Shown here: in pieces, positions 14,105 through 44,650 of the stretch | Position numbering within the stretch: position 1 is the stretch's first letter | Layout: the number at the start of each line of letters is the position of its first letter | Source of the DNA: an uncultured Sphingomonas sp. | GTDB taxonomy: Bacteria > Pseudomonadota > Alphaproteobacteria > Sphingomonadales > Sphingomonadaceae | Direction of reading: 5' to 3' | DNA: 64,000 nt | NCBI RefSeq assembly: GCF_913778135.1 | Contig: NZ_CAJYVU010000046.1 | Span: 3,928-67,927, forward strand | Made by a program: the position numbers and the translations under genes | Notes under the pieces: model-generated | The model's input: only the letters and a program-made list of their open reading frames with translations | Databases searched by the model: none | Told to the model about the DNA's origin: nothing

Positions 14105-14109
14105 AGATG
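14105..14109 (+). repeat. Left copy of 5-bp target site duplication AGATG
   Basis: Identical to 44646-44650; both copies directly abut the inverted repeats. Confidence 0.88.
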
Positions 14110-14148
14110 TAATCGGACCCGCCAAGACCTAAGCTCTGACCCGCTAAC
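14110..14148 (+). repeat. Left transposon end: terminal IR plus second transposase-site-like motif
   Basis: TAATCGGACCCGCCAAGAC (14110-14128); ACCCGCTAAC at 14139-14148. Confidence 0.85.
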
Positions 14149-14648
14149 GTGTTCGCAGGCACCATTTAGAGGCCTGTAGCTGTGACGTTGAGAAGTCAGC
14201 GGCGCATATTCGACCTAAATTGTTCGAAGAATTCCAGTCATCGCCCTCTTCTTGGCTGAAGCTCAAGAAGCGTCATGCGGATCACCATTTTCGGCCGTTC
14301 AGAGCCAGTTTACCCCTCTCCAACTCCGGCCCTTCGTTCACCTCGGCCGAGCGGCGGATTTGGCGCTTTCGTCGAACCGGCTGAACGGCATCGGCGGTAG
14401 ATCTCCGCCCTTCTGAAACTAATGCCCCTATACGGCGTCAGCCGGTCTCCGACGCATCGCGCCGCTTGACGGATCAAACCGTGATTGTGTCGAAGGGGCA
14501 TGAACGATAGCGCAGCGCGAGCGTGACCGGCAGCGAACTAGCCTACCTTGATACTGGGTTAGGTCGAGCGGGTAGCGGCAGGCGGACTGGGAATCGACTC
14601 TCGCGCGCGGCAGCCGCTATCAAAACGGCTAGTCCTCGAAAGGCAATC

Positions 14649-17177
14649 ATGCCCAAACTTCCTCGCGCCTTCCTATCTCACCACTCGGCTGACAAGAAGA
14701 TTGTCGGCGAAGTCGCAAGGTCGCTCGGCCGCGCCGCAGTGATTTATGACGCCTTCGAATTTGACGCTGGTGATGACTTCAGGGAGGCTATTCTCGCTAG
14801 CCTCTCTCGTTCGGACATCTTCGTCCTTTTCGCTAGTCGTGGCGCACTGACACGCGACTGGGTCAGATTTGAGATTGCCACCGCGAAGGAGGCGATGACG
14901 CGCAAGGCCCTCAGCAGGGTAGTTACCTTTATAATAGATCCAGCCCTCGACCTTGACGATCTACCCAATTGGATGAAGCAGACGCTCATCGTCCGTCAAG
15001 ACAACGCCGGCCTGATCGCGATCGAGATCAGGCGCATGATTGGCCAACGTCTCGCGGAAAGAATACCGTCCTACTTTGTCGGACGACGTGCCGAGATTGA
15101 GGAGGCCCTTGACGTCATTTCGAGTTTTACCGATCCCGACCAGCGTCCGCCTCTGCTAGTATACGGTCTTAAGGGAATTGGTCGGCGGACCCTCGTCCAA
15201 GCGGTAGCAAGGGACAATCTCTCCTATTCGACCACGTTGCCGGTCCCGCTCGGAGCCGGCGATCTGATGCCGGAGACGTTCGTTCGGCTCTCGGACGCCC
15301 TGTCGCCAGGCGGAGTCGCCGACTACGCTGTCCTCTTGGCCGAGCAGCAGGCCAAGGCGCCCGACACTCTCAGGGCTGACGTGCTTGAACTCATGAGCGT
15401 CGCATGCGACGCAGGAACGCTGCCGGTCATCGTCGACAACGGCGCCTTGGCTCAGCAGAACGGCGTGCTCCGACCGGAGTTCGAGGCGCTCTACCATGCG
15501 ATCGCGGCAGATCGCATGATTGACGCGGTCTTTATTGCGAGCCGACGCCTGTACGGGGCCGGGGGAGCGAGCCTGCCCTCGCTGCGCGTTCCTGAACTTG
15601 ACCAGGCATCTACCCAAAACTTACTGCGGGTCGCGGGCCGAGACATGGGGCTGGTCTTCGCAAGATCCGAACTCAGCTCACTGGCGACGTACTCTAGGGG
15701 CTACCCGCCCGCCGTACGCTTCGCGCTGGACGAAGCGCGGACCAGAGGCGTGCCGCAGGTCGTGGCAAATCAACGCGCGTTGGTAAACTTCAGCGCCGAG
15801 CTCTTTCTTCGACAGCTGAAAGAGAACAGCGCAATTACGCCCGCAATGGTCACAATGCTGAGGCTGCTATCGGCCTTCAGCCCTTTGCCACTCGGCGTCT
15901 TAGCGGATTACGGCGGAATTGCTGATGCCGAAGCCAACGCAGCAATGGACCAGCTCATTGATCTCGCCTTCGTGTTACCGGATGGGCTGAACTTCCGCAT
16001 TACCGAGCCGCTTCGCGATGCCGCCTACCGTGCCTTCGACGGCTTAAGGGTGGATTCCTCACGCCTCGCCGACCTGCTGGACGCATATCTGCGAGAAGAG
16101 GCCGGCGACGACGCACGGTTGAGCCTCGGGCAGACGATCTTCCGAGCCAGCCTGCTCGCGGGAACGCCGGCGCTGTCCCCGTTCGCGGTCGGTTTCGCGG
16201 CAGATCTGATCCAAGTGGCCACCCGCAGCTACCACGACCAAGACTACGATCTTGCGATACGCTACGGAGCGGCGGCGTTGGAGGCCCGGCCCGACAACGT
16301 CGACGTGCGCCGCTACGTTGCGCAGGCTTTCATCAGACGAGATAAGTTCGACGATGCGGACGCTCATATCGACGAGCTGATCAGGCAAGGTGAGCTGAAG
16401 GAGGCTTTCTATATTCGAGGCTTCGCGGCCCGCCGCAGAAGGGAGTACGGTGCAGCGGTCGAAGCGTATGAGAAGAGCCTCGCGTATGGCCGCGGGGGCG
16501 TTGCCGTTCATCGCGAACTCGCCAGCAGCTATTTCGAGCTAGGAGATCTCGCCAAAGCCGAGCATCATATCACACAAGCCGAGGAGAAGTCGCCGCACAA
16601 CCGCTACGTCGTTGACCTGCGCTGTACTATAGCGCTGCGCCACGGAGACTTGGAAACCGCAGCCAGAACTTTGGATGTCCTCGAACGAGTAGATCCGAGC
16701 GGCTTCGCCGACCACCGCCGTTCAACTTTCGAGCAGGCGCGTGGCAATCCAGGGGCGGCGCTGCGATACGCCGAAACGGCAAACCGCACCATACCGCATC
16801 CGCCATTCGAAGTCATGGCTAACCTGGCAAACTGTGAAATTGAGGCGGACCGTGCCGAGGCCGCACTCTCGACGCTGACCTTATTGTCTAAGCGCTTCGG
16901 AGGAGCCAACCATGACGCCCAAGTCGGCTTGCGATGCAAATACGAAATTCGGTTCGGCAGCCTCGACGCTGCAGAGGGCCTATGGACGACGCTCCGCGAT
17001 CGTGGCACGCCGGTTCACACAGGTCTCCGCCTATCGATCCTGAACCGCAAGGGAGCAGAAGTCGGACTCGACGCGGCCGACGAGAAAGAGCGGCAAGGCT
17101 TGGCGGAGCGACAGTCGGCCCTGGAGGCGGAGCGCAATCAGCGCATGCTGGGCTCGATCTTCTCGCGCTCAGAATAG
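14649..17177 (+). CDS. TIR-STAND/NB-ARC-like-TPR protein (NLR-like)
   Basis: N-terminal TIR (AFLSHHSADK...DWVRFEI), FVGRRAEI followed by LLVYGLKGIGRRT P-loop-like motif, GYPPAV, C-terminal TPR-like helices. Confidence 0.8.
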   Translation: MPKLPRAFLSHHSADKKIVGEVARSLGRAAVIYDAFEFDAGDDFREAILASLSRSDIFVLFASRGALTRDWVRFEIATAKEAMTRKALSRVVTFIIDPALDLDDLPNWMKQTLIVRQDNAGLIAIEIRRMIGQRLAERIPSYFVGRRAEIEEALDVISSFTDPDQRPPLLVYGLKGIGRRTLVQAVARDNLSYSTTLPVPLGAGDLMPETFVRLSDALSPGGVADYAVLLAEQQAKAPDTLRADVLELMSVACDAGTLPVIVDNGALAQQNGVLRPEFEALYHAIAADRMIDAVFIASRRLYGAGGASLPSLRVPELDQASTQNLLRVAGRDMGLVFARSELSSLATYSRGYPPAVRFALDEARTRGVPQVVANQRALVNFSAELFLRQLKENSAITPAMVTMLRLLSAFSPLPLGVLADYGGIADAEANAAMDQLIDLAFVLPDGLNFRITEPLRDAAYRAFDGLRVDSSRLADLLDAYLREEAGDDARLSLGQTIFRASLLAGTPALSPFAVGFAADLIQVATRSYHDQDYDLAIRYGAAALEARPDNVDVRRYVAQAFIRRDKFDDADAHIDELIRQGELKEAFYIRGFAARRRREYGAAVEAYEKSLAYGRGGVAVHRELASSYFELGDLAKAEHHITQAEEKSPHNRYVVDLRCTIALRHGDLETAARTLDVLERVDPSGFADHRRSTFEQARGNPGAALRYAETANRTIPHPPFEVMANLANCEIEADRAEAALSTLTLLSKRFGGANHDAQVGLRCKYEIRFGSLDAAEGLWTTLRDRGTPVHTGLRLSILNRKGAEVGLDAADEKERQGLAERQSALEAERNQRMLGSIFSRSE

Positions 17178-17357
17178 TTATACCGGCGGGTCAGCCGGCC
17201 TAATGCCGTGGCTCCGCCGCCATTACCGGTTGCGAAAAAGCGGCATGGTCGAGGGCGGGCAGCCCTCGCTTCGACGACCCACACGACGCGCCCTGACCCA
17301 CGAAGTGACATTTTCGCGTCGGGCCTAGCCGCGCACGGTACACAGCGGGCAGACCGC

Positions 17358-17792
17358 TTAGTCGGCCGCTTCATCGATCCACTTCTTCAACATCGCGTGA
17401 TCGACGTAGCTGCGCACGGGGGCCTGAGAATTGACGATGGCTTGAGGCGTCGCACCGACCGGATCAGTCATGCCCGTTTTGTCCTTGAGATGGTTGATGC
17501 GAAGCGCGACAATCCCGTTCCCGCGCGCGATCGACTGCTCGATCTCATAATCGATGTACTTGCGACCCGCTGATTTTGCGCCGATGCACACGACTGTCAC
17601 CGACGTGTTCGCCAAGCCGTTGTCGATGAGCGCTTTAATGGCCTTGTCACCCTTGGTCTTGGCGTCTTCCCACAGTGAGGCGTCGTGGAAGCCCGCCGCC
17701 GCGACGCCGACAATCTCGCCGATGTTGCGGATCTGGTTCACGCGCCAGATGTCGCGATCGTAGTGGAAGCTAAAGAAGACCCGGCGCGCCAC
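17358..17792 (-). CDS. ThsB-like TIR protein (DUF1863/MTH538 type)
   Basis: (GTG)ARRVFFSFHYDRDIWRVNQIRN...TSVTVVCIG...YIDYEIEQS..RGNGIVAL. Confidence 0.88.
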   Translation of the reverse strand: MARRVFFSFHYDRDIWRVNQIRNIGEIVGVAAAGFHDASLWEDAKTKGDKAIKALIDNGLANTSVTVVCIGAKSAGRKYIDYEIEQSIARGNGIVALRINHLKDKTGMTDPVGATPQAIVNSQAPVRSYVDHAMLKKWIDEAAD

Positions 17793-17879
17793 GACTTTAC
17801 TCCAAAGCCAAATCGGACGCATAGCGCGCGTCGATCCCCACGTGCAACGTCCGCAACCGCGAGATCATCGACGTTGCAA

Positions 17880-18365
17880 TCAGGGATGAGCGATCCGCGC
17901 CAGCCTGCATCGAACCCTTTCGACCAGATCTTCCACCGACGACGCCCGCTCGATGCCGTAGCGCTCAGCCGTGATGTCGATGTTACCCTTGCGAAAGTAG
18001 TCGGGCGCGCAGAACACGATCAGCCTTCCTCCGCGGGCGTGTAATCCTAATTCGAGAAGGCTGATAGGACTCTTGGAGCCTGACGCGAAATGCAGCACGA
18101 CAATGTCGGCCACCTCCAGGGCCTCAAGTTCCCACTTGACCTGCTCTCTGAAGTGCGGCTCGTCGGCGACAGGCAGCCAGTCAGCGCTCCAGTCCGCCCG
18201 GCGCGGGTTCACGATCGCCGCGCGCTCGCCGGACAGCAATTCTATGGCCTGCGCCTGCCAATCTTCGGAGTCGCCCATGTCAATGGTGCCGCCTAAGTAA
18301 ACCATCGGCCATCGGTTCGCGTTGGCGAGAGGCTGTGGAGCGGTGATCACGCGGGCGACGGTCAA
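17880..18365 (-). CDS. Nucleoside 2-deoxyribosyltransferase-like protein
   Basis: VYLGGTI, NPRR, QVKWELEALEVAD, SPISLLELG, FRKGNIDI; TTGA overlap with patatin stop. Confidence 0.8.
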   Translation of the reverse strand: MTVARVITAPQPLANANRWPMVYLGGTIDMGDSEDWQAQAIELLSGERAAIVNPRRADWSADWLPVADEPHFREQVKWELEALEVADIVVLHFASGSKSPISLLELGLHARGGRLIVFCAPDYFRKGNIDITAERYGIERASSVEDLVERVRCRLARIAHP

Positions 18366-21100
18366 GCTGGTTCTCCGATCGCTTTCGGTGCAACGATGCC
18401 ATCCCCGGTCACCGACGTGGCCGCGTCAAGAGGCTCAAGCAAGCTCTTTCCCATTGCCGCGAACCAATGTCCGATGTCTACATCCTGGTCTGTCGGGAAC
18501 GCCCCAACGATGCTCTGGAGGAAGAGCTTCTCCCCAACGTGCTGCCCGAGGCTCCGATAGGCCTCAAAGCGGGCCTCGCTAAAGTTCTGATCCGCCGTCG
18601 GATGATGGGGAAAGGCGGGCTCATCGAGCCTAAACCGGCGCAGGAACTCCCCTTCGTTACCGGTGAGGGACAGCTTGAGGTAGAGCATGTAGCCGACCGC
18701 TCCGTCGCGATAGCGGATGCGGCAGAACTGGAAGTGTGAGCGGCTGAGTCCGTCTCCATTACGCCTCAGTTCATCCAGATTGATCTCGATACGCACGCCC
18801 AAGTCGATCGAGGCGAGCCGCTGCAGGTTAGCAATGGCATGAAAGGTCATGTCTTGGTCCTGCTCGCCATCGATCACAACCACGAACTTGCAGCGTCGCC
18901 TCAGCAGCTCGTAGACTCCGAGATTTTCAATATGGCCGCCGTCGGAGAGGTTAAGGAAAGCGGCACGCTCGTCCATCCGACCGGTGAGTTCGCGAAGCAG
19001 GTAACTGAGGCCTGGTAAGCCTTGCGGGCTCGATTTTTCGACCGCGGGATTTCTTAGCCAGTATCCCAGCCTGACGTTCAGCAGCGAAAGCCAAAAGCTG
19101 AACTGCCCCCGATTGTGTAGACCCATGCGGGGCGAGATCGCTGCACCGGAGATCGCCATCGCTGTGGCGATCGTCAGGTCAGGCTCCAGGCACTCCCATT
19201 CCGTCGTCCGGTGATAGCCGCTGATCGGACTGCCACAGTGGTGTGGTGTGAACGAGAAAAAGTCGGTGAGGCGCCCTCGCATCGCTGGTGCGTCGGAACT
19301 CGGCACGTTGAGCGCCGCGTTGAAGATGGGATAGGGGCCGAGACGACCTTCAGCGAGCGAACTGAGCTTGCGGTCGTCGTCGGTGACCACCGCTCCCGGC
19401 TTGGCGTCAGCTACGAGAAACGCTTCCGCCAGCTTGCGCCGATAGTGCCGGTGCAAGCCAGTGACGTTGAGGTTTAAGAAAAAGTGATAGTAGCCTGCGA
19501 TACCAAGCGCGGCGACGGCGAACCAGAGGCCGTATTGCTCATGATCGATAAAAAATGCGGTCGACGCCAGCGTCACGATTGTCACGAACAGCGGGGCGGA
19601 GGAGCGCGCCAACCAGCGCCCGACGATCGGCGCCCTGGTCAGGGTCCGTTCCAGAACGATGCCGACGACCAGCAGGCCGAGCGGAGCGATGCAAACGTAG
19701 AGCAGTTGCAAGGGGTCGTCACCCATCGCGAGAGCCATCCACGCGGCGGATTCCCGCATGCCGATCGCGGCCAGCGCCACGGCCAGAACCACCGCGCACA
19801 TAGCCGTTGCTTGGTCGGCAAACTTCACCCCCTCTCGCCCCTGCCGCCACGCCAACGGCGCTCCGATCATAGCCAAGGAGAGAGCTCCAAGCGAAACGAC
19901 GGCAATCCAGTTGGTAAAGAAGGAAGGTATGAGGATAACGAATAGAGCCGAGAAAAGGCACAGGACCGCAGACAGCGCGAGGAGGTTGTTCAGCAGGCCG
20001 CTCGTCTGCGCGAAGACCGTGGACCATATCTTAGACAAGGGTCCTGACGCTAGATAGCGGCTGTTCTGACGGATGTGACCCGTGGCTGCGGCATCGCGGT
20101 GCGTTTCCCCGAACGGCCTGTCGCCACGCTCTAGTCCGATCGGCCGTGCCGCCTCGATCGCGCCGTCACCGGCCCCGACGTCACCAGCGGGCCCGCTCGT
20201 TCGATCGACATCTGTCGTCTCACCGGCAGCCAGGTAGTTCGTCAGAAATGCCCCGAGATAGCCGCCGCCGCTGACCGTCGAGAGGTAGTCGAACTGCTTG
20301 AGCAGGCCGCGTTTAGCGAACACGGTCAGCACGCCGAGGGCGAAAGTGGCCGACCGAATGCCGCCGCCAGAAAGCGCCAGCCCGGTCGCCCGCTCAGCCG
20401 TTAGCTCAATGCCGTAGCGCAGCCGCCGTCGATTGACCGCCTCCCGCTCAACCGACGCGATTTCGTCAAAGGAGATGCCCTTTACGCCATCGAGATCGTT
20501 CGGATCGCCCTTGTCTAGACCCCAACACAGCGCCACTCCCATCTCCAGATCTACGGCGGCCGCCTCCGCCTGCGGCAGCCGCCCAGGATCCTTCTCGCCC
20601 GCCAGCCTAAGGAGCATGAGATCCAGAGTTCGCAGGGTCTCCTGCAAGGCGGCTAGCTGCAGCCGGAAGTCGTCCGTGTCGTCGAGCGCGGCTAGGCGCC
20701 CCGCGCGATTGCGACGGTGCCAGCGCGAGGTGAATGGGCGAACGTGGTGGTTAAGCACGAACCACGTGACCGTCTCGAAGATTCGCCCCGTCGCGTTCTC
20801 CCGACAGATCACACGCGTCCGTTCGAACAATGCGTGCACGCTCTCAAGCGCAGACACCTCGTCGCCGCTCGAATAGCCGATCTCCTGAGTCGCGACACGC
20901 GACGTCAACTCCAGATGCAGCAGCGAAGCGGCCCTGACATCGGTCTCGCTGGGAGCCCACGCGCGGTGGCCGTGCGCCTCCAGGAACGCGTTCGTTAGGA
21001 CGGGCGTCGCGCCGACGTCCAACGCCCTCAGCTGGTCCTCCCAAGTCGTTTCGCTCACCGACCCCGTCCCATTGCTCGCTACGTCATCCCTGGAAGGCAT
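18362..21100 (-). CDS. Membrane patatin/cPLA2-like phospholipase with unknown N-terminal helical domain
   Basis: GLALSGGGIRSA, YLSTVSGGGY (Ser), LSDGGHIENLG (Asp); central hydrophobic segments; start set at ATG 21100. Confidence 0.85.
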   Translation of the reverse strand: MPSRDDVASNGTGSVSETTWEDQLRALDVGATPVLTNAFLEAHGHRAWAPSETDVRAASLLHLELTSRVATQEIGYSSGDEVSALESVHALFERTRVICRENATGRIFETVTWFVLNHHVRPFTSRWHRRNRAGRLAALDDTDDFRLQLAALQETLRTLDLMLLRLAGEKDPGRLPQAEAAAVDLEMGVALCWGLDKGDPNDLDGVKGISFDEIASVEREAVNRRRLRYGIELTAERATGLALSGGGIRSATFALGVLTVFAKRGLLKQFDYLSTVSGGGYLGAFLTNYLAAGETTDVDRTSGPAGDVGAGDGAIEAARPIGLERGDRPFGETHRDAAATGHIRQNSRYLASGPLSKIWSTVFAQTSGLLNNLLALSAVLCLFSALFVILIPSFFTNWIAVVSLGALSLAMIGAPLAWRQGREGVKFADQATAMCAVVLAVALAAIGMRESAAWMALAMGDDPLQLLYVCIAPLGLLVVGIVLERTLTRAPIVGRWLARSSAPLFVTIVTLASTAFFIDHEQYGLWFAVAALGIAGYYHFFLNLNVTGLHRHYRRKLAEAFLVADAKPGAVVTDDDRKLSSLAEGRLGPYPIFNAALNVPSSDAPAMRGRLTDFFSFTPHHCGSPISGYHRTTEWECLEPDLTIATAMAISGAAISPRMGLHNRGQFSFWLSLLNVRLGYWLRNPAVEKSSPQGLPGLSYLLRELTGRMDERAAFLNLSDGGHIENLGVYELLRRRCKFVVVIDGEQDQDMTFHAIANLQRLASIDLGVRIEINLDELRRNGDGLSRSHFQFCRIRYRDGAVGYMLYLKLSLTGNEGEFLRRFRLDEPAFPHHPTADQNFSEARFEAYRSLGQHVGEKLFLQSIVGAFPTDQDVDIGHWFAAMGKSLLEPLDAATSVTGDGIVAPKAIGEPA

Positions 21101-21196
21101 CGGCCCACCAGGCGCCTGCACGTTAGACACCGCGGCGCTCGCGTCAAAGAACGACCTGTCGCGGAGAAGGGTTGAGTTTGGTCGCGCAAGGTGGGA

Positions 21197-21211
21197 GAAC
21201 GTTGATGGAAC
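21197..21211. promoter_or_regulatory. Alphaproteobacterial LexA (SOS) box
   Basis: GAAC-GTTGATG-GAAC; reverse strand reads TTTGTTC-N7-GTTCT; lies in the divergent intergenic region. Confidence 0.75.
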
Positions 21212-21269
21212 AAATTCCCGTGTCTGAACGCCGGTGCAGCTCGGGTGGAAAAGCGAGGATGACTTTCCG

Positions 21270-21764
21270 ATGGCAAAGCGTCGCCACGTCTTTATCAGCC
21301 ACCACCATGCCGACGACGCCCACGTCAGCGGCCTGACCGACATGCTCAAGCGCAACGGTCATGAGATCCGCAACAGCTCGATCCGCGCCAAGCCGGCCAA
21401 CCAGCGTCGCCTGGATGAGGGCCGCGTGAGCGACAATGCCATCAAACGACTGCTGCGGATGAAGATGAATTGGGCGTCCACGGTCGTAGTGCTGATCGGC
21501 AAGCAGACTCACGCGCGACCGTGGGTCGATTGGGAGATCAGGAAGGCGCACGAGCTGGGGAAGCGGATCGTCGGTGTCTACGAGCGCGGCGGGCGCGAGA
21601 ACGACATTCCGGATGCGTTCAAGAAGTACGGTGACGCCCTCGTCGGCTGGAACTCCGACAATGTGATCGGTGCGATAGACGGCACGTGCTCCCCCTTCGA
21701 ACGACCAGATGGCGGATCGCGCGCCACCTCTGGTGACGGCGCGCGGAGCAGCTGCGCCGCCTAA
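21270..21764 (+). CDS. ThsB-like TIR protein (DUF1863 type)
   Basis: RHVFISHHHADD, STVVVLIG, RPWVDWEIRKA, IVGV. Confidence 0.88.
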   Translation: MAKRRHVFISHHHADDAHVSGLTDMLKRNGHEIRNSSIRAKPANQRRLDEGRVSDNAIKRLLRMKMNWASTVVVLIGKQTHARPWVDWEIRKAHELGKRIVGVYERGGRENDIPDAFKKYGDALVGWNSDNVIGAIDGTCSPFERPDGGSRATSGDGARSSCAA

Positions 21765-22414
21765 TGCCGCACGTCCACGTCTACGCTGTCAGCTACGACC
21801 TAGGCTTCGCGCCGAACCCGTTCGGCGGCGTGTGCAGTCTGGCCTGCTGCAAGCCGGAGATCAGGAGGACCGCGCAACTCGACGACTGGGTCGTCGGATT
21901 GACCAGCACCAAGCTCCCACCAGCGCTGCGGCTCGTGTTCGCAATGAGGGTCTCTAGGATCAGCGACTTCGACGAATACTGGAGTTCGGCGGAGTTCGCC
22001 GGTCGAAAGGCGGCCCGCAACGGTTCGCAGAAGGCGCAGGTGGGCGACAACATTTACCATCGCGACAGACCCGAAACCGACTGGATCCAGGAAGATTCAG
22101 TGCACAGCCTTCCCGGCGGCCTGCAATGCGATCTTAATCGAGATCACGACACGCGCGTGAACCGGATCCTGCTGTCCGACCACTTCCTCTACCTCGGTGA
22201 TCAAGCGCGCGCCGTCCCGAATGAGATACTCGTCGAGCTAAAGTATTGGAAGAATCCGCGTGATCGCCGCAAATTCACGATGGAAGAGGCGGCGGACCTA
22301 ATTGGGTGGATCGAAGGGCTGAAGGCCGCCGCGGCAGCATCCGTCGTCGGCGATCCCATCGACTTCGACAAAACCGGCAAGACGTTCTCCTACGTCGGGC
22401 AGAAGATGATTTGA
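21764..22414 (+). CDS. Nucleotide modification associated domain 2 (Nmad2)-like protein
   Basis: YDLGFAPNPFGGVCSLACCKP.IR, LVFAMRV, GDNIYH, LLSDHFLY; TAATG overlap with TIR stop. Confidence 0.75.
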   Translation: MPHVHVYAVSYDLGFAPNPFGGVCSLACCKPEIRRTAQLDDWVVGLTSTKLPPALRLVFAMRVSRISDFDEYWSSAEFAGRKAARNGSQKAQVGDNIYHRDRPETDWIQEDSVHSLPGGLQCDLNRDHDTRVNRILLSDHFLYLGDQARAVPNEILVELKYWKNPRDRRKFTMEEAADLIGWIEGLKAAAAASVVGDPIDFDKTGKTFSYVGQKMI

Positions 22415-22504
22415 CGGCGATGGTTCACCCCGCAGCGGCCCGGCCGTTCGGTCGATTCCGGATGTCACGCGGCGATTCAATAGCATCAAACATTGTGGGC
22501 TGAC

Positions 22505-26663: not shown

Positions 26664-26692
26664 GCGAGCAGATGCTTAATAGATGCCTGCTG

Positions 26693-27930: not shown

Positions 27931-27970
27931 CCATACACTCCTTCCAAAACACCTTTGCACCTGGTGCGGT

Positions 27971-28388: not shown

Positions 28389-28404
28389 GCACGAGAATCG
28401 ACGT

Positions 28405-34875: not shown

Positions 34876-34884
34876 TCAGTCGGT

Positions 34885-35403: not shown

Positions 35404-35439
35404 GTCGACCTGTCCGCGGCGGCATGGCACCATCAACGC

Positions 35440-36099: not shown

Positions 36100-36117
36100 G
36101 TTGCTGAGCGCTCCCGA

Positions 36118-36312: not shown

Positions 36313-36424
36313 CCCACCGGAGTGCTAAGGCTTACAACTTAGTCTAAGTTAAGTGACTGCACGCTGACTCTCACGCATTGATGATCCAGTTTGGCACAAT
36401 TCGGATCATTAATTGAGGTGAGTT

Positions 36425-36943
36425 GTGCCGCAGCTGCCTTTCGGTCTGACGGAGAAGGAAGCCGAGGTTCTGCGCCTTGTGGATCGAACCCGCACGACGG
36501 GTGAGATCGCATCCATCGTCGGCCGTTCCACATCGACCGTCGATCACCAGATCAAGAGCGCGCGACGGCGTCTGGGAAGCCTAAACCGCTACCATGCCGC
36601 TGATCGGTTCCGTCAGGCCGAACATAGCCAACGTGCGTCTAGACCCACGGCGTCGATACCACCGGAAGCCCAAAGACTGGATGTCGATGGAGCTGCGAGT
36701 GATCGTGTCGAGCCAAGCGAACCTCTAGCCAGCGTGCGCGAGGAAAGAGCTGAATACGATGCGCCCATCCCGGCATACTCGATGGAGAATGTCGATGATC
36801 CCACCGGATTGAACACCAGCCCGCTCGTCACGATCCTGCTGATAGTGGCTATCGCCGCTGCCATGATGATCGTCGTCCTAGCCATACCCGCACTGGTCAG
36901 CAGCGCCGACCAGCTAACCCAGCTTATCCACTCTCGAACGTAG
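36425..36943 (+). CDS. LuxR-type HTH regulator with C-terminal TM helix
   Basis: LTEKEAEVLRL...EIASIVGRSTSTVDHQIKSARRRLG; hydrophobic C-terminus. Confidence 0.75.
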   Translation: MPQLPFGLTEKEAEVLRLVDRTRTTGEIASIVGRSTSTVDHQIKSARRRLGSLNRYHAADRFRQAEHSQRASRPTASIPPEAQRLDVDGAASDRVEPSEPLASVREERAEYDAPIPAYSMENVDDPTGLNTSPLVTILLIVAIAAAMMIVVLAIPALVSSADQLTQLIHSRT

Positions 36944-36978
36944 ACCTGGATCTCCACCGATCCGGGTGGAGGACACAC

Positions 36979-37325
36979 ATGCCCGTTGATCTTCGCTCTG
37001 CCGTTGCCGCGCGAAAAGTCGTCGGCGACCAAGTCGCACACAGCCTGATCCGCTGGAACAGAGCGCACACCAAACCGCGCTTCAAGCGTCCATGTTCATG
37101 AGCCTCGTCCTTGAGGCGCATGCCCAAGCAGCGATCCCGGAAGAGGATGGCATGGCGATCGTCTCGATCTTGTCCGAAGCATCCCACCATGCGGCGCAGA
37201 GCCGAGCGCGCATCGGCCAGGCACATGCCGCGATGCGCCGACTGGCTGACAAGCACGGGATCGTCTTTGCGGGTCCGCCGAACTGCCCCGAGCCCGACTT
37301 CGCCCGCACATTCACCGGAGCATAG
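36979..37325 (+). pseudogene. Helical hypothetical gene interrupted by a probable 1-bp frameshift near 37050
   Basis: GGAGG RBS and ATG 36979 in one frame; coding continues in the 37092-37325 frame; adding one C at ATCCGCTG joins them into about 115 aa. Confidence 0.55.
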
Positions 37326-37350
37326 GAAAGGTTGACCGGACTGCCCCCCT

Positions 37351-37806
37351 GTGGTCCGGTCAGACATGCCGGTATGGACGATCCTCTATTCCGTTGCCTT
37401 CTGGCCCTGCCTGTTCGCGGTGGGCGCCGCCTGCTTGCTCTGGGGCACTCGCTCGCAGCAGTGCGTGGCGCTGACCCTTGTGGTCGGCTTGACGCTAGGG
37501 CAGCTCAGTCTCTCGACGATCGACTATCATGGCCTGGAACGCAGGCTTGCGATGATCGACGTGATCATACTGTGTCTTCTAGTCGCGTGCGCGATGTGGA
37601 AGCCGCGCCTTCCTTTGATCTTCGTGGCCGCCTTCCAGCTCTTGGCTGTCATGGGACACCTGGCGAGGATCATCGATCCTCGGATGGATCGACTGACCTA
37701 CGCGGTCCTCACCGGCGCTACGGCTTACTGCCTTCTAGCTTCGCTGATTACCGATTTGACGCTAACTACCCTGCGCCACCGATCGCAAGCGCGCCGCCAT
37801 GCTTGA
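37351..37806 (+). CDS. Integral membrane hypothetical protein
   Basis: 4-5 hydrophobic segments. Confidence 0.65.
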   Translation: MVRSDMPVWTILYSVAFWPCLFAVGAACLLWGTRSQQCVALTLVVGLTLGQLSLSTIDYHGLERRLAMIDVIILCLLVACAMWKPRLPLIFVAAFQLLAVMGHLARIIDPRMDRLTYAVLTGATAYCLLASLITDLTLTTLRHRSQARRHA

Positions 37807-38029
37807 GACTAGCCCGGCGCTATACCGGGACGCATCTCAGAGCGGCCGAGGGTCTGATCGATGATCTTCGCTGGAACCGCACCACACCGTCGATTGAAAT
37901 TGCAGAATTCGTCGGTCACGCGTTCGGCCTCTGGTCTTTCCCAGATCAAGATGATGTCGACTTCGCTCTGCCTACCTACGACAAGAGCATCTACGAAGGC
38001 TGGGTCGCACATTTCAGCAGGCCGCAACC

Positions 38030-38365
38030 ATGAGGCTTGCGCATGCTCATCAGGTGCAATCCGAGCGAACCGCCCTTGGCAAGTCGGCGGACGTGATCCG
38101 CGACGTCATGAGCAGATGGGAGCGGCTCGACGAAGATCGCCCGGCTCACCGGTGGAGGGCACGACGCGAGATCGCGCTTACGATCGAGAGTCTGATCGCC
38201 GTGCTCGACCGGCTCACACCCGACTGCGACCTGGAGGATGAGCCCCAAGAAGCAGATGGCGACGAGGGTGATAACGCATGGCCGGAGTTGAGCGCCAGCC
38301 CATCAGACGAACGCGTGCAAGCGGTATCCCTCGAGTCCACACGGTGCCGCTCTACTGTTCCTTAA
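38030..38365 (+). CDS. Hypothetical protein
   Basis: IESLIAVLDRLTPDCDLED acidic motif; no function recognised. Confidence 0.45.
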   Translation: MRLAHAHQVQSERTALGKSADVIRDVMSRWERLDEDRPAHRWRARREIALTIESLIAVLDRLTPDCDLEDEPQEADGDEGDNAWPELSASPSDERVQAVSLESTRCRSTVP

Positions 38366-38402
38366 TGCCGGCATGGCATGGCTCTCTTCACGGGAGAGCA
38401 AG

Positions 38403-38771
38403 ATGTACAGCATCAAGATCGACAAGGCGAATAGCCTCGTGAACGTTGCACTGACCGGCATGATGGGACTGCCTGAAGTTGCAGCATACATAGCCGAATT
38501 GAAGCGGCAATTCGTTGCGCAGCGCCTTCACGATTACGCGATGGTGATCGATGTGACGGACATGCCTATCCAATCGCAGGATACGATCACCGCGATGGGC
38601 GAGCACATGGCGTCAATGCCGAAGGCGCGCGCGCTCGCCGTGGTCACGGGCAGATCGCTGGCGCGCATGCAGGTCCGGCGCCTGTTCAAACAACCATACT
38701 GCCGAGTAACGTCAACGGTGGCCGAGGGCGTAAGCTGGGTTCTGCGCGGCGTCGAACCAACCACGCAATGA
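38403..38771 (+). CDS. SpoIIAA/STAS-like hypothetical protein
   Basis: GGAG RBS; YAMVIDVTDMPIQSQD; alpha/beta pattern. Confidence 0.55.
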   Translation: MYSIKIDKANSLVNVALTGMMGLPEVAAYIAELKRQFVAQRLHDYAMVIDVTDMPIQSQDTITAMGEHMASMPKARALAVVTGRSLARMQVRRLFKQPYCRVTSTVAEGVSWVLRGVEPTTQ

Positions 38772-39150
38772 CAATCTTTCTACGATCACAACTCCGCGTC
38801 AGCCTTGGCGCCACATCCACCAGCAGAGCGCCAGCAGCATGACGCAGGTGACAGCCGCGGTGATGAGTATTCCGCGAAATGCCTCAACTCCTTCGTCCGA
38901 TGGTCCCAAGCTCATGGCTTGTGGTTAACGCCGCCTCGAGCGCTCTCAACCGGCCTTCCTTACAGATGTGAGAAATAGCGGTTGCTTGCGGCAGCGAGTG
39001 GGTCATTCTCTATCTGCGCAGGTCCGCCCCTCGGTCGTAGCGCAGCCGGTCGCCTCCCCGCGCTTCCAGCGTGCCCTACGGAAGCGGCCGGCACTCGACA
39101 GACCCATCGATGCATGAAACAGTGACTTTTCCGATCTGATGGAGGCTTGA

Positions 39151-39426
39151 ATGCGCAGTGCTCTAGTCGCCGTAGCTCTCTTAATCGTCGCCGCGGTGCC
39201 GGTGACGGCGCAAGTCCAGCGTAAGGCACCAGACCCACTCGCTCCACCACCGCTCGCAGCATTCAAGCTCTACAAAATGCAAATGCTGAAATTGCGCGAC
39301 GAGGCGCGCGCTCTACAGCAGGCGGACGGCGGAAAGCTGACGCCCGAGCACGACGCGGACATTCAGTGGCGCATCGATCGGACGACGGCTCTCTACCATC
39401 GTCGCCTCGATGGTCAGACGTTCTGA
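39151..39426 (+). CDS. Small secreted hypothetical protein
   Basis: Signal-peptide-like N-terminus, GGAGG RBS. Confidence 0.55.
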   Translation: MRSALVAVALLIVAAVPVTAQVQRKAPDPLAPPPLAAFKLYKMQMLKLRDEARALQQADGGKLTPEHDADIQWRIDRTTALYHRRLDGQTF

Positions 39427-39529
39427 TGTCGCATGCCGCCAACCAATTGACGCCCCCGCCTAATCCAAGCGGTAACAGTCGCGTGGGGTGAGCGTCACAT
39501 ACGCCCCGTCGTCAACTATCTTTGCAGAG

Positions 39530-39910
39530 TCATAAGCAGCCGCCCATTCCGTAGCGACGCCAGTATGTGTCCCACCGTGTAGCAGCACCGGCGGCAAGCA
39601 TGGCGCATGACAACGAGCGACCATCCGGCAGCGTGCACTTGGCAACCACTCGCTTGTAGGAGCGGTCGACAGGCTGGCAGATCAGGCGCTTGTGGAGCGT
39701 GAGGCGCTGAGCAACCTGCTGGCTGGCAGCGGCCGCACGATCGTCACAGACGTAATTTGCGCGACCTGTGCGACATGGCTGCGCGCTTTCGTAGTCAGGC
39801 GCCTGGATACCCGCGACCCGTACCTTTATGCCATTGCGACACCAAAGCGGTCCGTCGCCGTCGTGAACTTTTACAACGTCACAGACGAAGGCTGGCGGTA
39901 GATCAATCAT
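39530..39910 (-). CDS. Thermonuclease (SNase) family protein
   Basis: VVKVHDGDG, VRVAGIQAPD, DRSYKRVVAKC, MLAAGAA. Confidence 0.8.
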   Translation of the reverse strand: MIDLPPAFVCDVVKVHDGDGPLWCRNGIKVRVAGIQAPDYESAQPCRTGRANYVCDDRAAAASQQVAQRLTLHKRLICQPVDRSYKRVVAKCTLPDGRSLSCAMLAAGAATRWDTYWRRYGMGGCL

Positions 39911-39964
39911 GCGTGGCACCTTGCACACAGCGACTCGGATTGTCGCTGAATGATGGAGAGAGAC

Positions 39965-40156
39965 ATGAAGCTTCTGCTTGCCGCGCTCACCGCATCCGCT
40001 CTGCTCACCGCTCCTGCACAGGCTGCTGCTTGCCGCGATGCGAAGGGCAAGTTCATCAAGTGCGCCGAGAAGACACCCGCGAAGGCGACCCGCTGCAAAG
40101 ACAGTAAGGGCAAGTTCGCTAAGTGCGGCACGCCAGGAGCAACGCCGGTCAAGTGA
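39965..40156 (+). CDS. Small secreted Cys-containing protein with duplicated motif
   Basis: Signal peptide, then CRDAKGKFIKC / CKDSKGKFAKC. Confidence 0.65.
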   Translation: MKLLLAALTASALLTAPAQAAACRDAKGKFIKCAEKTPAKATRCKDSKGKFAKCGTPGATPVK

Positions 40157-40245
40157 TCGAACCCGCCAGCCGCACATCGCAGGAACGATGGGGTGCGGCT
40201 GGCTGTTTTCGACCAAGAGCGCGCGAGGCGCCGGGAGATATGTGT

Positions 40246-40593
40246 ATGCGTAACAGATTGATGGGCATCTTTGCTGCCCTGGCAATGGTGTTGACAGGGT
40301 TTGGCGCGAGCGTCGCCCCGACCGACGCTTCGGCCCAGTCATACCGCTACGACAGGGGCTACTCCCGCAATCGTGGCTACAACCGCGGACGCTACTACGC
40401 GCCCCGTCGTGGGTTCCGCGGCTATCGTGGATACAGGGGTTATCGCGGATACCGTGGCGGCTATCGAAACCGCGGGTACCGTGGCTACCGTGGATACCGC
40501 GCTTATCGTGGGTATCGCGGCTATCGTGGGTATCGGAACTACCGCGGCTACCGTGGACCGCGTGGCTACTACGCCCGTCGCTACCGTTACTGA
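40246..40593 (+). CDS. Secreted low-complexity RGY-repeat protein
   Basis: Signal peptide, then many RGY tripeptides. Confidence 0.65.
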   Translation: MRNRLMGIFAALAMVLTGFGASVAPTDASAQSYRYDRGYSRNRGYNRGRYYAPRRGFRGYRGYRGYRGYRGGYRNRGYRGYRGYRAYRGYRGYRGYRNYRGYRGPRGYYARRYRY

Positions 40594-40738
40594 CATCCGG
40601 TCAGGGGTGTGATTTAGATCATACCCTTCACCTGCACCGGTAAGCCAAGTGTAAATACGCGCGCTCGACTCCTTCAATGCGTAAGGTAACTTCCAGCCTA
40701 CAGAGGCGTCATTTGCGCGCCAGGACGGGAGGCGCGCG

Positions 40739-41248
40739 ATGCGGCCGTTATACATGCTTGGTCTGCTACTCGTAGCGATCGTAAGTGCTGGTCCTGCATC
40801 GGCTGCGGTAACGACAGCCAATGTTAATTGCCGCTCAGCGCCCGAAGTATCGGGACGGCTGGTGTCCCGCATTCCCACCGGAACGTCGGTCACAATCATG
40901 TCTCGCCTCAGCAAGTGGTCGCTGGTCGATCGCATAAAGGCGGGCTGTTGGGTGCTTAGCCGCTATCTAGAAGATGACGCCGCAACCTCATCGAACTTCC
41001 GCATGCCAACCTACAGCGCGATTCGCGCTCGTTCGTCGTCACGAGCAATCCGCAGCCGTCCACGCTCGTATGCCTTTGGTTATTCAACGCCTCGGAAGTA
41101 TCGCCGGTCTTCCACATCTCGGCGTTCGCAAGGCTCCTTCTCCTATGGCGGCGGCTCCTGCCCTTGCTCGGGTGGGAACGTCTGCATAGGCCCGCGGGGC
41201 GGTCGTTACTGCATCACGAGCGGTGGAAATAAGCGATACGGCGTGTAG
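40739..41248 (+). CDS. Secreted SH3b-domain protein with Cys-rich C-terminal motif
   Basis: TTANVNCRSAP...GCWVLSRYL; CPCSGGNVCIGPRGGRYC. Confidence 0.7.
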   Translation: MRPLYMLGLLLVAIVSAGPASAAVTTANVNCRSAPEVSGRLVSRIPTGTSVTIMSRLSKWSLVDRIKAGCWVLSRYLEDDAATSSNFRMPTYSAIRARSSSRAIRSRPRSYAFGYSTPRKYRRSSTSRRSQGSFSYGGGSCPCSGGNVCIGPRGGRYCITSGGNKRYGV

Positions 41249-41305
41249 GTCCACGCCTTATCACGCCACATGCCCGGAACCAGTCTCGGCTGGATACGCT
41301 GATCG

Positions 41306-41704
41306 GTGATGTATCGCGTCATCTACGTTAGCCGATCCCTGATCGGTGGGCAGCAGGGCACCCTGACGAGCATTGTGCAGGCAGCCGCGGCCCGGAACAG
41401 GAGCGCGACCATCACCGGCATGTTGTGGTCGGATGATCATAATTTCGTTCAGGCGTTGGAAGGCGAGGAAGCGGCAGTGATGATCACCATGCAGCGCATC
41501 ATGGCGGATCACCGACACACAGACGTGGAGATGGTCGAGACACGGCCAATCCAAGCTCCCCGGTTCGGCGCATGGTCGATGATCGAGGCCGGGGAGAGCG
41601 CGCTTGGCGACGAGTGCGGGCTTTTCCTCGTCGGTCTTGCCGGAATGACAGGTACGCCCGCACGGCGGCGCATGCGCGAAGTCATAATGCGGTCACTGCA
41701 CTGA
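41306..41704 (+). CDS. Stand-alone BLUF blue-light sensor
   Basis: YRVIYVSRS, RN..ITGML, FVQALEG, RIMADHRH, RFGAWSM. Confidence 0.88.
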   Translation: MMYRVIYVSRSLIGGQQGTLTSIVQAAAARNRSATITGMLWSDDHNFVQALEGEEAAVMITMQRIMADHRHTDVEMVETRPIQAPRFGAWSMIEAGESALGDECGLFLVGLAGMTGTPARRRMREVIMRSLH

Positions 41705-41770
41705 GCCACATGGCAACTGAGTTATGACGCGCTTGTTTCAGCAGCAGCGTTTTTGACTGGACGCGATCAC

Positions 41771-42382
41771 TTAAGTTGCCTGACTTAATTGAGCGCTGTC
41801 GCTCAGCGTGTGGAAGTCCTCGATCGTCCTGTCATAATAATTGAGTTTAGGTGCTGCGAACACTGCCATATACAAAAGGCCGTTTACCAACGCTGCCCGC
41901 CCTTCGCCCCGCCGCGGCAAAGCATCGTTATCGATGTAGTCGAACGTGAAACGAATGCCTTCGCGACCAAGGAATTTGTCTGGCTTCGCTCCCGTCACGT
42001 TGAAGGTCGCGATGTCCTTGCCTGCCCGATAAGTGCCTTCAACCAATTCAGGTACTTCAACCAGTAAGGTTTCTTTAGTAAACTTAGGAAGAGGTTTACG
42101 CTTCTTACTCACCTCGCGGACTAGGGGTTTGCCCGGTTCGATACCGGCATAGAAGGTCACATCATTCAGCTCTTCACCATCCAGCGTCCAAGTTTCGGTG
42201 TTTTTACCGACCGCGACGCTCAGCTTGTTCCAGTCTCGTGCCGGTGTCACAGTCAGCGCGGAGTCAGCGATCTTCGCGGGCTGAGCCTTAGGCCGATAGC
42301 TGTTTGCGATAGCGCCGGCTGACGTGAACAAGATCGCTGTTGCAAGTGCGATCGGCAGGATGTGGATTTGGTTAGCACGCAT
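41771..42382 (-). CDS. Secreted/periplasmic hypothetical protein
   Basis: Signal peptide; 1-bp overlap with the M48 gene. Confidence 0.65.
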   Translation of the reverse strand: MRANQIHILPIALATAILFTSAGAIANSYRPKAQPAKIADSALTVTPARDWNKLSVAVGKNTETWTLDGEELNDVTFYAGIEPGKPLVREVSKKRKPLPKFTKETLLVEVPELVEGTYRAGKDIATFNVTGAKPDKFLGREGIRFTFDYIDNDALPRRGEGRAALVNGLLYMAVFAAPKLNYYDRTIEDFHTLSDSAQLSQAT

Positions 42383-43590
42383 TACTTGGCGTCCTTTTGA
42401 GCTAGCATGCTGATCATTGTGGCATCGGGGGCGTCTGGCCTAAGCGAAAGATAGCGCTGCAATGCTGCCTTCCCTTCGACTTGCCGCCCGGTCTTGAACA
42501 GCGATAGGCCTAGACCGCGTTGTGCTTCAGGAAGCGATGGATCAAGCGCCACAGCTTTGCCGTAGTAATCCGCAGCATTCATCAAATCACGCTGGTTGCC
42601 TCGACCACGATACAGATCGCCTCGCGCCCGCCAAAGGGGGGCTGTCCATCCTGTCTCGGCCAGCCGAGTTATGATGAAGTCGCTCCCTCCGAAGTCATTC
42701 AGCTTGATCTGGTCATCGAGGAACGTTGGCAGCCACGGAGCCAATGCCGCGGTGTATCGATCTGCTCCGTCGTCGCGGGTATCCCCATCGGGTGCTGCGA
42801 GGGCAAACAGGTAATCTGCCCGCTCACCATCGGCAGGATGGGACGCGAAGAACGCTACTCGATCAAAGTCAGGTTTGCGCAGCCCGCGTTCGCTTGCGGA
42901 TGCTTCACGCTCCAAGATGAGATTGCGCCACACGCGCGAAGCGGCACCAGGCCGCAGGGTGCTGCCGTTTAGGTAACCGAGACCAATCAGATCAGCCTCG
43001 CGCTCCTGATCGCGTCCGAAACGAGCCAAGCCACCCAACACCGACAGCTGCAGATTGTCGAAGCTGCCGTATGCACTCTGCGTGCCTGCCATAGACGTGA
43101 GCACCGCCGCCCAACTCATCAGGTCCGTGCCCTTCCGAGCAGCCTTATACTGCTGGAGCGTGTGTCGCTTTTCGAAGTGGCCAAACTCGTGACCAAGGAC
43201 GGCGCCTAGTTCAGCTTCACTGCGCACGCGCAGCAGCAAGCCGCTAAACACCTCCATCGTGCCGTTCGGCGTCATGCTCGCGTTAAATACAGGAAAGCGG
43301 ACGAGATAGACGCGCACCGATGCGCAGCGATCGGTGCCAACAGCGTTGCACAGCGCTTGGCGGACGTAAGCGTTGAGCTTCTCGTCGCGGATCAGCAGCG
43401 GAGAGTTGGCGAGCTTTCGTTCGTTTTCGTCCGCTTCACGCCAAAGGCCAATCTCGTCGACGCCCTGAGGTTGGTAAGCGCCAGCGTATGGAGCAGGCGG
43501 TGGAGCAGGCTGGACCTTTGGCTTTGTGGCGGCGCCAGCTGATCCAGCCAGGGTCAGTGCGGCGTAGAGCGCCAGTGCACGAAACTTCAC
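42382..43590 (-). CDS. M48 family metalloprotease with C-terminal TPR
   Basis: FNASMTPNG, ELGAVLGHEFGH (HExxH), QEREAD, SHP. Confidence 0.88.
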   Translation of the reverse strand: MKFRALALYAALTLAGSAGAATKPKVQPAPPPAPYAGAYQPQGVDEIGLWREADENERKLANSPLLIRDEKLNAYVRQALCNAVGTDRCASVRVYLVRFPVFNASMTPNGTMEVFSGLLLRVRSEAELGAVLGHEFGHFEKRHTLQQYKAARKGTDLMSWAAVLTSMAGTQSAYGSFDNLQLSVLGGLARFGRDQEREADLIGLGYLNGSTLRPGAASRVWRNLILEREASASERGLRKPDFDRVAFFASHPADGERADYLFALAAPDGDTRDDGADRYTAALAPWLPTFLDDQIKLNDFGGSDFIITRLAETGWTAPLWRARGDLYRGRGNQRDLMNAADYYGKAVALDPSLPEAQRGLGLSLFKTGRQVEGKAALQRYLSLRPDAPDATMISMLAQKDAK

Positions 43591-44351
43591 TTTCCTGCCT
43601 CGGTCGGGGCACTAGTGGGTGCAGCGACAATCGAACTGCCCGGGAATTCCTCAAGGAGCTGCGCCACGCGCTTATCGGCGCCTTCCGCCGTGCGCACATC
43701 TCCGCCCATCGCCCCGTCCGCGTTCAGCCAGAGCACGTCACCTGTTTTCAAGTCGATCAATCCGGCGTAGCCAGCATGTTCACCTGACTTTACCCCGATG
43801 CCGGGACCTAAAAGCGCAACAACTTGAAGCAGCTTGCGACCAGTCGAGCCGTAAGCATCCTTGTTGTAGATAAAGAGAGCGTAGTCAGCACCTTTGGCAC
43901 CCGGAAGCGCGGATACGCCAGAGCCGAGAGACCAATCGAATATATTCGCTTTGTTGTCGCGCTTCTTGGTTGGCAGCCTATTGCCCACGAAGAACTGATA
44001 GTTGATAACGGATCGGGACACAGCGGCAAAGAGTGCCGCATATTCTTCAGCCAAGCGCGCGTCGTCGCCATAAGCCTCTGGCGCGACGATCACCCTATTT
44101 CCAAGTTTCGTCTGAAGTTTAGCTAACGCGCCGTCGATGTTTTTGCGCGATTGCTCCGTCCAATCTCCATTTGGCTCGAACATGCCGCCTGTTGACTGCG
44201 CTCCCACCTTCACAGTTGGGCGCATGACCAGGATGGTCTTGCCGCTCGCAGCTTTGAGATCGAAACCGTTCTTCACGGCGGTTCGCTCCTGCGCGTTGGC
44301 AGGCATGATCACCATCGCAACGGCTGCCGCGGCCCCTGCAAGTAATTTCAT
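43587..44351 (-). CDS. Secreted hypothetical protein
   Basis: Signal peptide; first gene of a three-gene coupled operon. Confidence 0.65.
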   Translation of the reverse strand: MKLLAGAAAAVAMVIMPANAQERTAVKNGFDLKAASGKTILVMRPTVKVGAQSTGGMFEPNGDWTEQSRKNIDGALAKLQTKLGNRVIVAPEAYGDDARLAEEYAALFAAVSRSVINYQFFVGNRLPTKKRDNKANIFDWSLGSGVSALPGAKGADYALFIYNKDAYGSTGRKLLQVVALLGPGIGVKSGEHAGYAGLIDLKTGDVLWLNADGAMGGDVRTAEGADKRVAQLLEEFPGSSIVAAPTSAPTEAGK

Positions 44352-44529
44352 GCGAATAATCCCCCCCGAGATGGCGTCGGCTCCCCAGCCAACAGCTATA
44401 ATCTGCACAAGACCGACAATCTAACAAGATGCAGAAAGCCTAGGTGTAAATCTCGGCTTGAACTTTTCCCGAGACCGGCACGGTGCTCGTTCGACGGGTA
44501 CGCGTCCCGCAAGCAAGCCGTCTGAGCAT

Positions 44530-44645
44530 GTTAGTGGGTTTCAAGCCGCAGGCGCGATGCGTTAGTGGGTTCTACCCTATGGGTTTTTTGGAAACGCAGT
44601 GTCTTCACGAGACAGAATGTTAAACCGTCTTAGTGGGTCCGATTA
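44530..44645 (+). repeat. Right transposon end: three transposase-site-like motifs plus terminal IR
   Basis: GTTAGTGGGT at 44530 and 44561, CTTAGTGGGT at 44629; terminal GTCTTAGTGGGTCCGATTA (44627-44645). Confidence 0.85.
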
Positions 44646-44650
44646 AGATG
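44646..44650 (+). repeat. Right copy of target site duplication AGATG
   Basis: Identical to 14105-14109. Confidence 0.88.

Follow-up and report, generated by a model that had tools for sequence, protein, structure and literature searches.

The window, a 64-kb stretch of DNA from an uncultured Sphingomonas sp., carries a Tn7-like element of 30.5 kb at positions 14110-44645, just 3′ of a tRNA-Phe gene. It is very probably an intact, single-copy cut-and-paste transposon belonging to an undescribed family from Sphingomonads that homes to the 3′ side of tRNA-Phe. The tips of the element read TAATCGG...CCGATTA, that is, TAA...TTA, and do not conform to the TGT...ACA pattern. The following features mark its boundaries.

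14027-14102, plus strand: tRNA-Phe(GAA), the attachment-site (att) gene, identified with ARAGORN and left intact
14105-14109: left copy of the target-site duplication (TSD), AGATG, read directly
14110-14150, plus strand: att-proximal end, with terminal TAATCG followed by two packed 14-bp TnsB-type sites
44528-44645, minus strand: att-distal end, with three spaced TnsB-type sites and terminal ...CGATTA
44646-44650: right copy of the TSD, AGATG, read directly and identical to the left copy

The left end begins TAATCGGACCC on the plus strand at 14110-14128, and an inverted copy is located at 44627-44645. When the two terminal 19-mers are compared (TAATCGGACCCGCCAAGAC at 14110-14128 on the plus strand and TAATCGGACCCACTAAGAC at 44627-44645 on the minus strand), 17 of 19 positions agree and the first 11 are identical. 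These are the only two matches to the 19-mer end in the window, where 0.02 would be expected by chance. The AGATG repeats abut both tips with nothing between. The left copy starts 3 nt past the CCA of tRNA-Phe, which itself ends 7 nt before the left tip. Base composition changes at the same places, with 69% G+C in both flanks, 59% between the ends, and the shift falling at the ends. The original prediction, made from the letters alone, had proposed both the terminal match and the AGATG direct repeat, and direct reading of the junctions bears out the two claims in full.

Internal to the tips, a 14-bp repeat with the consensus rrACCCrCTAAsr occurs in two copies at the att-proximal end (14115-14128 and 14137-14150, 22 bp apart) and in three copies at the distal end (44528-44541, 44559-44572, and 44627-44640), which gives an asymmetric arrangement of the Tn7 type. 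The second proximal site (at +31) is kept in the related element G293 and in metagenome junctions, and the layout of the distal end is the same in G293 and in two further relatives, L067 and L070. A packed end of TnsB sites next to the att site has been described for Tn7-like elements (PMC11406308). The possibility that the transposition genes form a smaller nested element was rejected because no TnsB-type site was detected upstream of tnsA (27960-28405).

Four core transposition genes are located in the middle of the element. They are co-oriented, overlapping or nearly abutting, and all intact.

28405-29244, plus strand: tnsA-like endonuclease, 279 aa, from NCBIfam TnsA_like, motif, and fold
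29323-31542, plus strand: tnsB DDE transposase, 739 aa, from PDB match, DDE motifs, and Pfam rve
31539-32525, plus strand: tnsC, TniB-family AAA+ ATPase, 328 aa, from Pfam TniB (E=8e-17)
32512-34479, plus strand: TniQ/TnsD-like target selector gene, 655 aa, from AlphaFold2 (AF2) and Foldseek

The best PDB match of the TnsB protein is Tn6677 TnsB (9y7b, E=3e-29), and it also matches the TnsB proteins of PseCAST and ShCAST. Its catalytic motifs (MDDTVVD, TDNG, and IER) align with an intact triad. The TnsC protein scores above the cut-off for Pfam TniB and matches VchTnsC (7rzy) with E=0.004. For the 655-aa protein, Pfam TniQ gives only a non-significant E=0.6, and the AF2 model (predicted local distance difference test score, pLDDT, of 82) has 21 top Foldseek matches that are all TniQ/TnsD, the best with E=3e-6. 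This model comprises a TniQ fold and a long C-terminal extension that is helical and rich in helix-turn-helix elements, and the four cysteines C184, C187, C201, and C204 (CxxC...CxxC) are invariant. The tnsA-like product matches NCBIfam TnsA_like with E=1e-7. Its PD133...D147-A-K149 motif is invariant in 25 homologues, and the top four Foldseek matches of its AF2 model (mean pLDDT 70) are all Tn7 TnsA (1t0f, 1f1z, and 9bw1), with probability ~1.0. On the strength of motif and predicted fold, a TnsA with a restriction-endonuclease fold is with moderate confidence encoded beside tnsB. The element combines TnsA, TnsB, TnsC, a TniQ selector, asymmetric ends, a 5-bp TSD, and oriented insertion at an att site, all of which are features of the Tn7-like transposons; it lacks their typical TGT...ACA termini, a trait that the literature has ceased to regard as defining. 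Among the element open reading frames (ORFs) of at least 100 aa that were scanned with Pfam, there was no integrase family and no cas family; no dedicated CRISPR-array search was run.

Several minor features of these genes were observed. In the public annotation, the TniQ-like protein (P0001, 601 aa) begins 54 codons later than in the 655-aa ORF. Homologues of 619-675 aa favour the longer form, whose start (32512-32673 region) overlaps the tnsC stop. In the related locus L069 (9477-11500), the TniQ-like gene is annotated in two pieces (ORFs of 171 and 499 aa), which might reflect a frameshift or a real split, and in L065 a 79-aa rve_3 fragment (12025-12264) follows the tniQ-like gene. Just upstream of tnsA (28250-28400) there are several GTGTTAG or GTTAAC-like repeats, for example cgtgttagtctgacttaacac and gagtgttagtgtctgacg, and these may be an operator that controls the tns operon.

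Three homologous elements were resolved at both ends and share the TA tips of the window element. Together with the latter they have the following characteristics, where identity refers to TnsB and the gap is counted from the CCA of the tRNA to the TSD.

Window element: 100% identity, 30.5 kb, gap of 2 nt, TSD AGATG, tips TAATCGG...CCGATTA
G434, an Allosphingosinicella metagenome-assembled genome: 74% identity, 68.7 kb, gap of 3 nt, TSD CCCCT, tips TAATCGG...CCGATTA
G293: 58% identity, 33.5 kb, gap of 13 nt, TSD GTGAT, tips TAATCGG...CCGATTA
G014: 37% identity, ~98 kb, gap of 11 nt, TSD ATGAT, tips TAATCGCGCAC... and TAATCCCGCAC...

These are four independent insertions after tRNA-Phe, with TAATC...GATTA tips abutted by four different perfect 5-bp TSDs, each of which has a chance of 1 in 1024 of matching by accident. 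The two bases preceding the TA are AT, CT, and AT in G293, G434, and G014, respectively, and the TG found there in the window is consequently the end of its own TSD. Because the three homologous elements show TAATC...GATTA with different 5-bp TSDs, the element really ends in TA...TA, and the TGT at 14108 is there by coincidence. The tips retain the 3′-terminal A; the sole change is from C to T at the penultimate base. A further element, L065, has an end that reads TAATCGGACCC, which was seen at one end only. The claim in the original prediction of a complete Tn7-like element with true TA...TA tips and a 5-bp TSD thus holds across four insertions, and all four core genes are intact in the window element.

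The site of insertion is as constant as the form of the ends. In all five fully resolved elements and six metagenome junctions, the packed end is proximal and the insertion is 2-13 nt after tRNA-Phe. The gap between the CCA and the TSD was compared across the tRNA-Phe junctions of the window (14103-14109), L034, L036, L057, L077, and L107-L117. It is 2-4 nt in most elements versus 9-13 nt in G014, G293, and L109. The two classes are offset by about one helical turn, which might be due to differences between TnsD-like orthologues or to indels that came later.

The same family also includes members with TG tips. In G601, whose TnsB is 45% identical to that of the window, tRNA-Phe is followed by TA, the TSD ATAGC, and the tip TGATCGCGCACA..., and the other end reads ...TGTGGGCGATCA followed again by ATAGC. 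This element is therefore a TG/CA sibling with TGATC...GATCA tips at the same att site, and its tnsB is located on the contig of the distal end. The distal end TGATCGGACCC is shared by L067, from Sphingomonas sp. UYEF23, and L070, a JGI metagenome contig. One end in G255 reads TGATCGCGCAC and is thus of the TG type, and the end in L069 is probably TGACC. No partner end was found in G255, where the four best candidates lie in coding sequence and the contig stops 1.4 kb past tnsB. Among metagenome tRNA-Phe junctions that have the diagnostic second site, L108 and L114 carry TA, and L107, L109, L113, and L117 carry TG; five further junction matches look like chance. The overall tally is ~7 TA versus 8-9 TG, such that each state accounts for about half of the sampled members. 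A census of the end pattern in 401 genomes yielded mostly noise in G+C-rich coding DNA, with true tRNA-Phe junctions only in G000 and G601. In G373, TGTGAAGC... after tRNA-Phe resembled a canonical end; no inverted partner is present within 70 kb, and this candidate was rejected as chance.

A maximum-likelihood tree of TnsB places the TA state in three well-supported positions, each with a TG sister. The window and G434 are next to L067, the pair formed by G293 and L065 is sister to L070, and G014 is sister to G255. These three separate placements require at least three changes of state, each time at both ends. The second terminal base is naturally variable (A or G) within the tRNA-Phe-specific family. 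It had been anticipated that mapping the ends and TSDs of TnsB homologues would reveal a lineage that uses a TA terminus. This is correct for the window, G434, G293, and G014, the last three of which were recovered with TA and a 5-bp TSD, and does not extend to the whole lineage, given that G601 has verified TGATC...GATCA tips with a TSD and is interleaved with the TA elements on the tree.

The distribution of the two states raises the question of what drives the exchange. We consider it unlikely that the repeated switch from TGATC to TAATC at both tips reflects selection on the ends as opposed to neutral drift. A TGATC tip carries a GATC site at each end (G601, L067, L070, L113, L117, and L107), which TAATC removes. 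Dam controls the use of the ends of IS10 and IS50. If selection has acted, it could have favoured loss of the tip GATC, which would parallel such methylation-linked, or restriction-linked, control of end use. A D12-class (Dam-class) methyltransferase is present in three of four TA hosts and one of two TG hosts, which shows no correlation with the loss of GATC at the tips. Alternatively, TnsB could have co-adapted, with residues 371 and 445 as candidates. No column of the TnsB alignment (10 sequences) cleanly tracks TA versus TG. Within the catalytic domain, the only columns with non-overlapping residues in the two groups are 371 (A/A/A/A/V in TA elements versus S/Q/T/S/G in TG elements), which is five positions before the catalytic D376, and 445 (S/S/S/S/I versus T/A/A/A/K), and with 10 sequences both are weak leads.

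A 3′-terminal CA is strongly conserved among transposases of the retroviral integrase type, and each genome has a single copy of the element. The TA tips might accordingly be regarded as inactivating decay in immobile fossils, with only the TG relatives being active. We judge this to be very improbable. All four fully resolved TA elements carry TA at both ends, the four tns genes are all intact, and the TSDs are perfect. Moreover, sister elements that share TA are found at independent insertions in different genera: the window and G434 differ in TSD and in offset from the tRNA, and G293 and L065 differ in their distal flanks. Insertion therefore followed the rise of TA, which argues against TA being inactivating decay. 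As read from the sequences, the independent insertions with different TSDs argue that TA-ended elements are mobile. Experimental precedent exists in McCAST, which transposes with TAC/GTA ends (PMC9881144).

Hardly any weight can be given to a second alternative, in which a site-specific recombinase moves the locus as a tRNA-linked island, with the Tn7-like genes along as passengers. A tRNA-Phe gene is a classic integrase target, and in G022, the closest related species, a ~12-kb tyrosine-integrase island occupies the same tRNA-Phe. This island spans 444-12550 of L014 (G022:C4:591200-604400), encodes an integrase at L014:533-1660 (Phage_integrase, E=9e-27), and is bounded by a direct repeat of ~50 bp that duplicates the 3′ end of the tRNA. 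The window element differs in each respect, as the Pfam scan found no integrase family among its ORFs of at least 100 aa and the far junction (44600-44700) has no repeat of the tRNA 3′ end. It is bounded by inverted repeats that contain further TnsB-type repeats, and its 5-bp TSD varies between genomes, features that indicate transposition and not att recombination. One tRNA-Phe gene thus serves two mechanistically different mobile elements, one Tn7-like and the other a tyrosine-integrase island.

Nor does the canonical TGT at 14108 (TGTAATCGG...) survive as the true left end, with a right end that is degenerate or an element that is asymmetric: TGTAATCG would supply an 8-bp terminal spacer before the first TnsB site, as in Tn7, and a 3-bp repeat might be read into the AGA that precedes TGT and follows ...ATTA, but the right end would then read CTTAATCG, with no CA and no 5-bp TSD, as the original prediction had correctly noted, and the relatives G293, G434, and G014 refute this choice because they lack a TG before TAATC and yet have perfect 5-bp TSDs that abut TAATC on both sides.

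Some observations weigh against the interpretation of the locus as an intact Tn7-like transposon with TA tips. The unoccupied junction is predicted to read ...GGGCACCATC-AGATG-CACCGACC..., with a single AGATG, and an exact scan of metagenome contigs for this junction gave 0 matches. An empty site in the same species was not found either; when the joined flanks were searched in 60 relatives, only G022 was found to keep both, and its junction differs in critical bases and is 5 nt shorter, such that it speaks neither for nor against a single AGATG. The evidence for TnsA is also moderate in numerical terms, with a Foldseek E of only ~1e-3, a TM score of at most 0.28, an NCBIfam score below the cut-off, and the pLDDT of 70. 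Several TG relatives (L067, L070, G255, and the metagenome junctions) as well as L065 were seen at one end only. Finally, the tns operon is located 14 kb from the att-proximal end, unlike that of Tn7, and is transcribed toward the distal end. This remote position is shared by the relatives, in which the bulk of the cargo separates the att-proximal end from tnsA, with ~18 kb in G293, ~58 kb in G434, and ~92 kb in the G014 element (C1:1553093-1651044). In G014, the distal end follows the tniQ-like gene by only ~0.7 kb.

The ends, TSDs, att site, gene content, and spread of TA and TG among the relatives are observed; what each protein does biochemically and how precisely cleavage proceeds can be proposed by homology to Tn7. 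Presumably, the 655-aa TniQ/TnsD-like protein acts as the reader of the tRNA-Phe gene and brings in TnsC, the TniB-type AAA+ protein, which would then activate a heteromeric transposase composed of TnsA and TnsB. TnsB would bind the 14-bp repeats (a packed pair at the att-proximal end, three spaced copies at the distal one), cut after the 3′-terminal A, and join the ends to target positions 5 bp apart. TnsA would cut the 5′ strands, and repair would yield the 5-bp duplication.

The element shares with Tn7 separate TnsA and TnsB proteins, an AAA+ TnsC, a large DNA-binding selector with a TniQ domain, a 5-bp TSD, oriented insertion just 3′ of a conserved gene that is left intact (glmS for Tn7, via TnsABC+TnsD), and asymmetric ends with multiple TnsB sites whose packed end is at the att site. 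It differs from Tn7 in its TAA/TTA tips (TGT/ACA in Tn7), in its att gene (tRNA-Phe in place of glmS), and in having no TnsE or second selector. In Tn7, tnsA abuts the att-proximal right end, whereas 14 kb of cargo in the window and ~92 kb in G014 lie in between. In addition, the TnsA and TniQ-like proteins of the window are too divergent for Pfam.

The original prediction gave TG...CA as the established form of Tn7, Mu, Tn552, and Tn5053 family ends, and published work shows that it is not universal among Tn7-like elements. McCAST, a CRISPR-associated transposon (CAST), is bounded by 5′-TAC/GTA-3′ and functional in experiments, and its ends could be converted to TGT/ACA with only a modest effect (Hsieh & Peters, NAR 2023, PMC9881144). 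Experiments have thus already provided a precedent for a TA terminus in a Tn7-like element. Approximately 20% of cyanobacterial TnsAB elements do not have TGT/ACA, which is thus not universal (PMC9881144), and some I-F3 CASTs end in TGA/TCA (PMC9881144, PMC11406308). A 2024 Annual Review repeats the point on non-universality and states that the reason for TGT/ACA conservation is not understood (PMC11406308). It was also already known that tRNA att sites are read by TnsD-like proteins (PMC9881144). Like the window element, McCAST begins and ends with TA and uses a TnsD-like protein to home to tRNA genes. However, McCAST is cyanobacterial and carries a TnsAB fusion, a CRISPR-Cas module of type I-D, and a second small TniQ, whereas the Sphingomonad element has separate TnsA and TnsB, no cas genes in the scanned ORFs, and a TAATC terminus. 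The TG members of the family end in TGATC...GATCA and are thus of the same type as the TGA/TCA I-F3 CASTs. Among solved structures, the closest homologue of the window TnsB is that of Tn6677. The window element differs from the TGA/TCA CASTs in having A at position 2, and no CRISPR-Cas module turned up in the Pfam scan of its ORFs of at least 100 aa. The element seems to be targeted to a tRNA gene by protein alone.

The tnsA-like and TniQ-like proteins fall into 34 and 18 clusters, respectively, among 5.8 billion proteins. The named clusters belong to Sphingomonas, Allosphingosinicella, or Tsuneonella; almost all carry a hypothetical label, and none has a Pfam domain. A full-text search of the literature for Tn7-like elements together with tRNA-Phe or Sphingomonas returned nothing relevant. 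The Sphingomonad family of tRNA-Phe-specific Tn7-like elements with a variable second terminal base thus appears to be undescribed. The novelty is modest in that the TA terminus itself has precedent and would not greatly surprise a specialist; what appears new is the family. End finders that require TGT/ACA miss about half of its members, which, as large defence islands (30-98 kb) at tRNA-Phe, could be mistaken for integrase islands. The close natural pairs of TA and TG elements that have TnsB-site sequences and an att site in common offer a convenient comparative system. If selection or co-adaptation of TnsB does underlie the switch, G293 versus L070 and the window versus L067 could show why TG/CA is conserved.

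The remainder of the element is cargo in two arms, which was annotated by using Pfam on ORFs, with PADLOC for the TIR-NLR and ThsB genes. The first arm carries defence-type genes.

14523-27960: cargo arm 1, defence-type genes (Pfam, PADLOC)
14523-17177: TIR-NLR (PADLOC)
17358-17822, minus strand: ThsB-like TIR (PADLOC)
17880-18365, minus strand: NDT-like (Pfam)
18362-21355, minus strand: patatin-like (Pfam)
21234-21764: ThsB TIR (PADLOC)
21764-22414: Nmad2 (Pfam)
22493-24103: thymidylate-synthase-like (Pfam)
24100-25050: TylF-type methyltransferase (Pfam)
24930-26159: 5-hydroxymethyldeoxyuridine (5-hmdU) DNA kinase-like (Pfam)
26693-27960, minus strand: two ORFs of unknown function
34885-44408: cargo arm 2 (Pfam), with several ORFs that have no family match
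35440-36099: SRAP peptidase (Pfam)
36425-36943: LuxR-type regulator (Pfam)
41306-41704: BLUF (Pfam)
42382-43590, minus strand: M48 peptidase-TPR (Pfam)

In the region 21234-26159, a ThsB-type TIR gene, with which no ThsA was seen, is followed by the Nmad2, thymidylate-synthase-like, TylF-type methyltransferase, and 5-hmdU DNA kinase-like genes. The genes after ThsB make up a cassette for thymidine hypermodification of the phage style, which the transposon carries as cargo. The second ThsB-like gene (17358-17822, minus strand) is grouped with the NDT-like and patatin-like genes.

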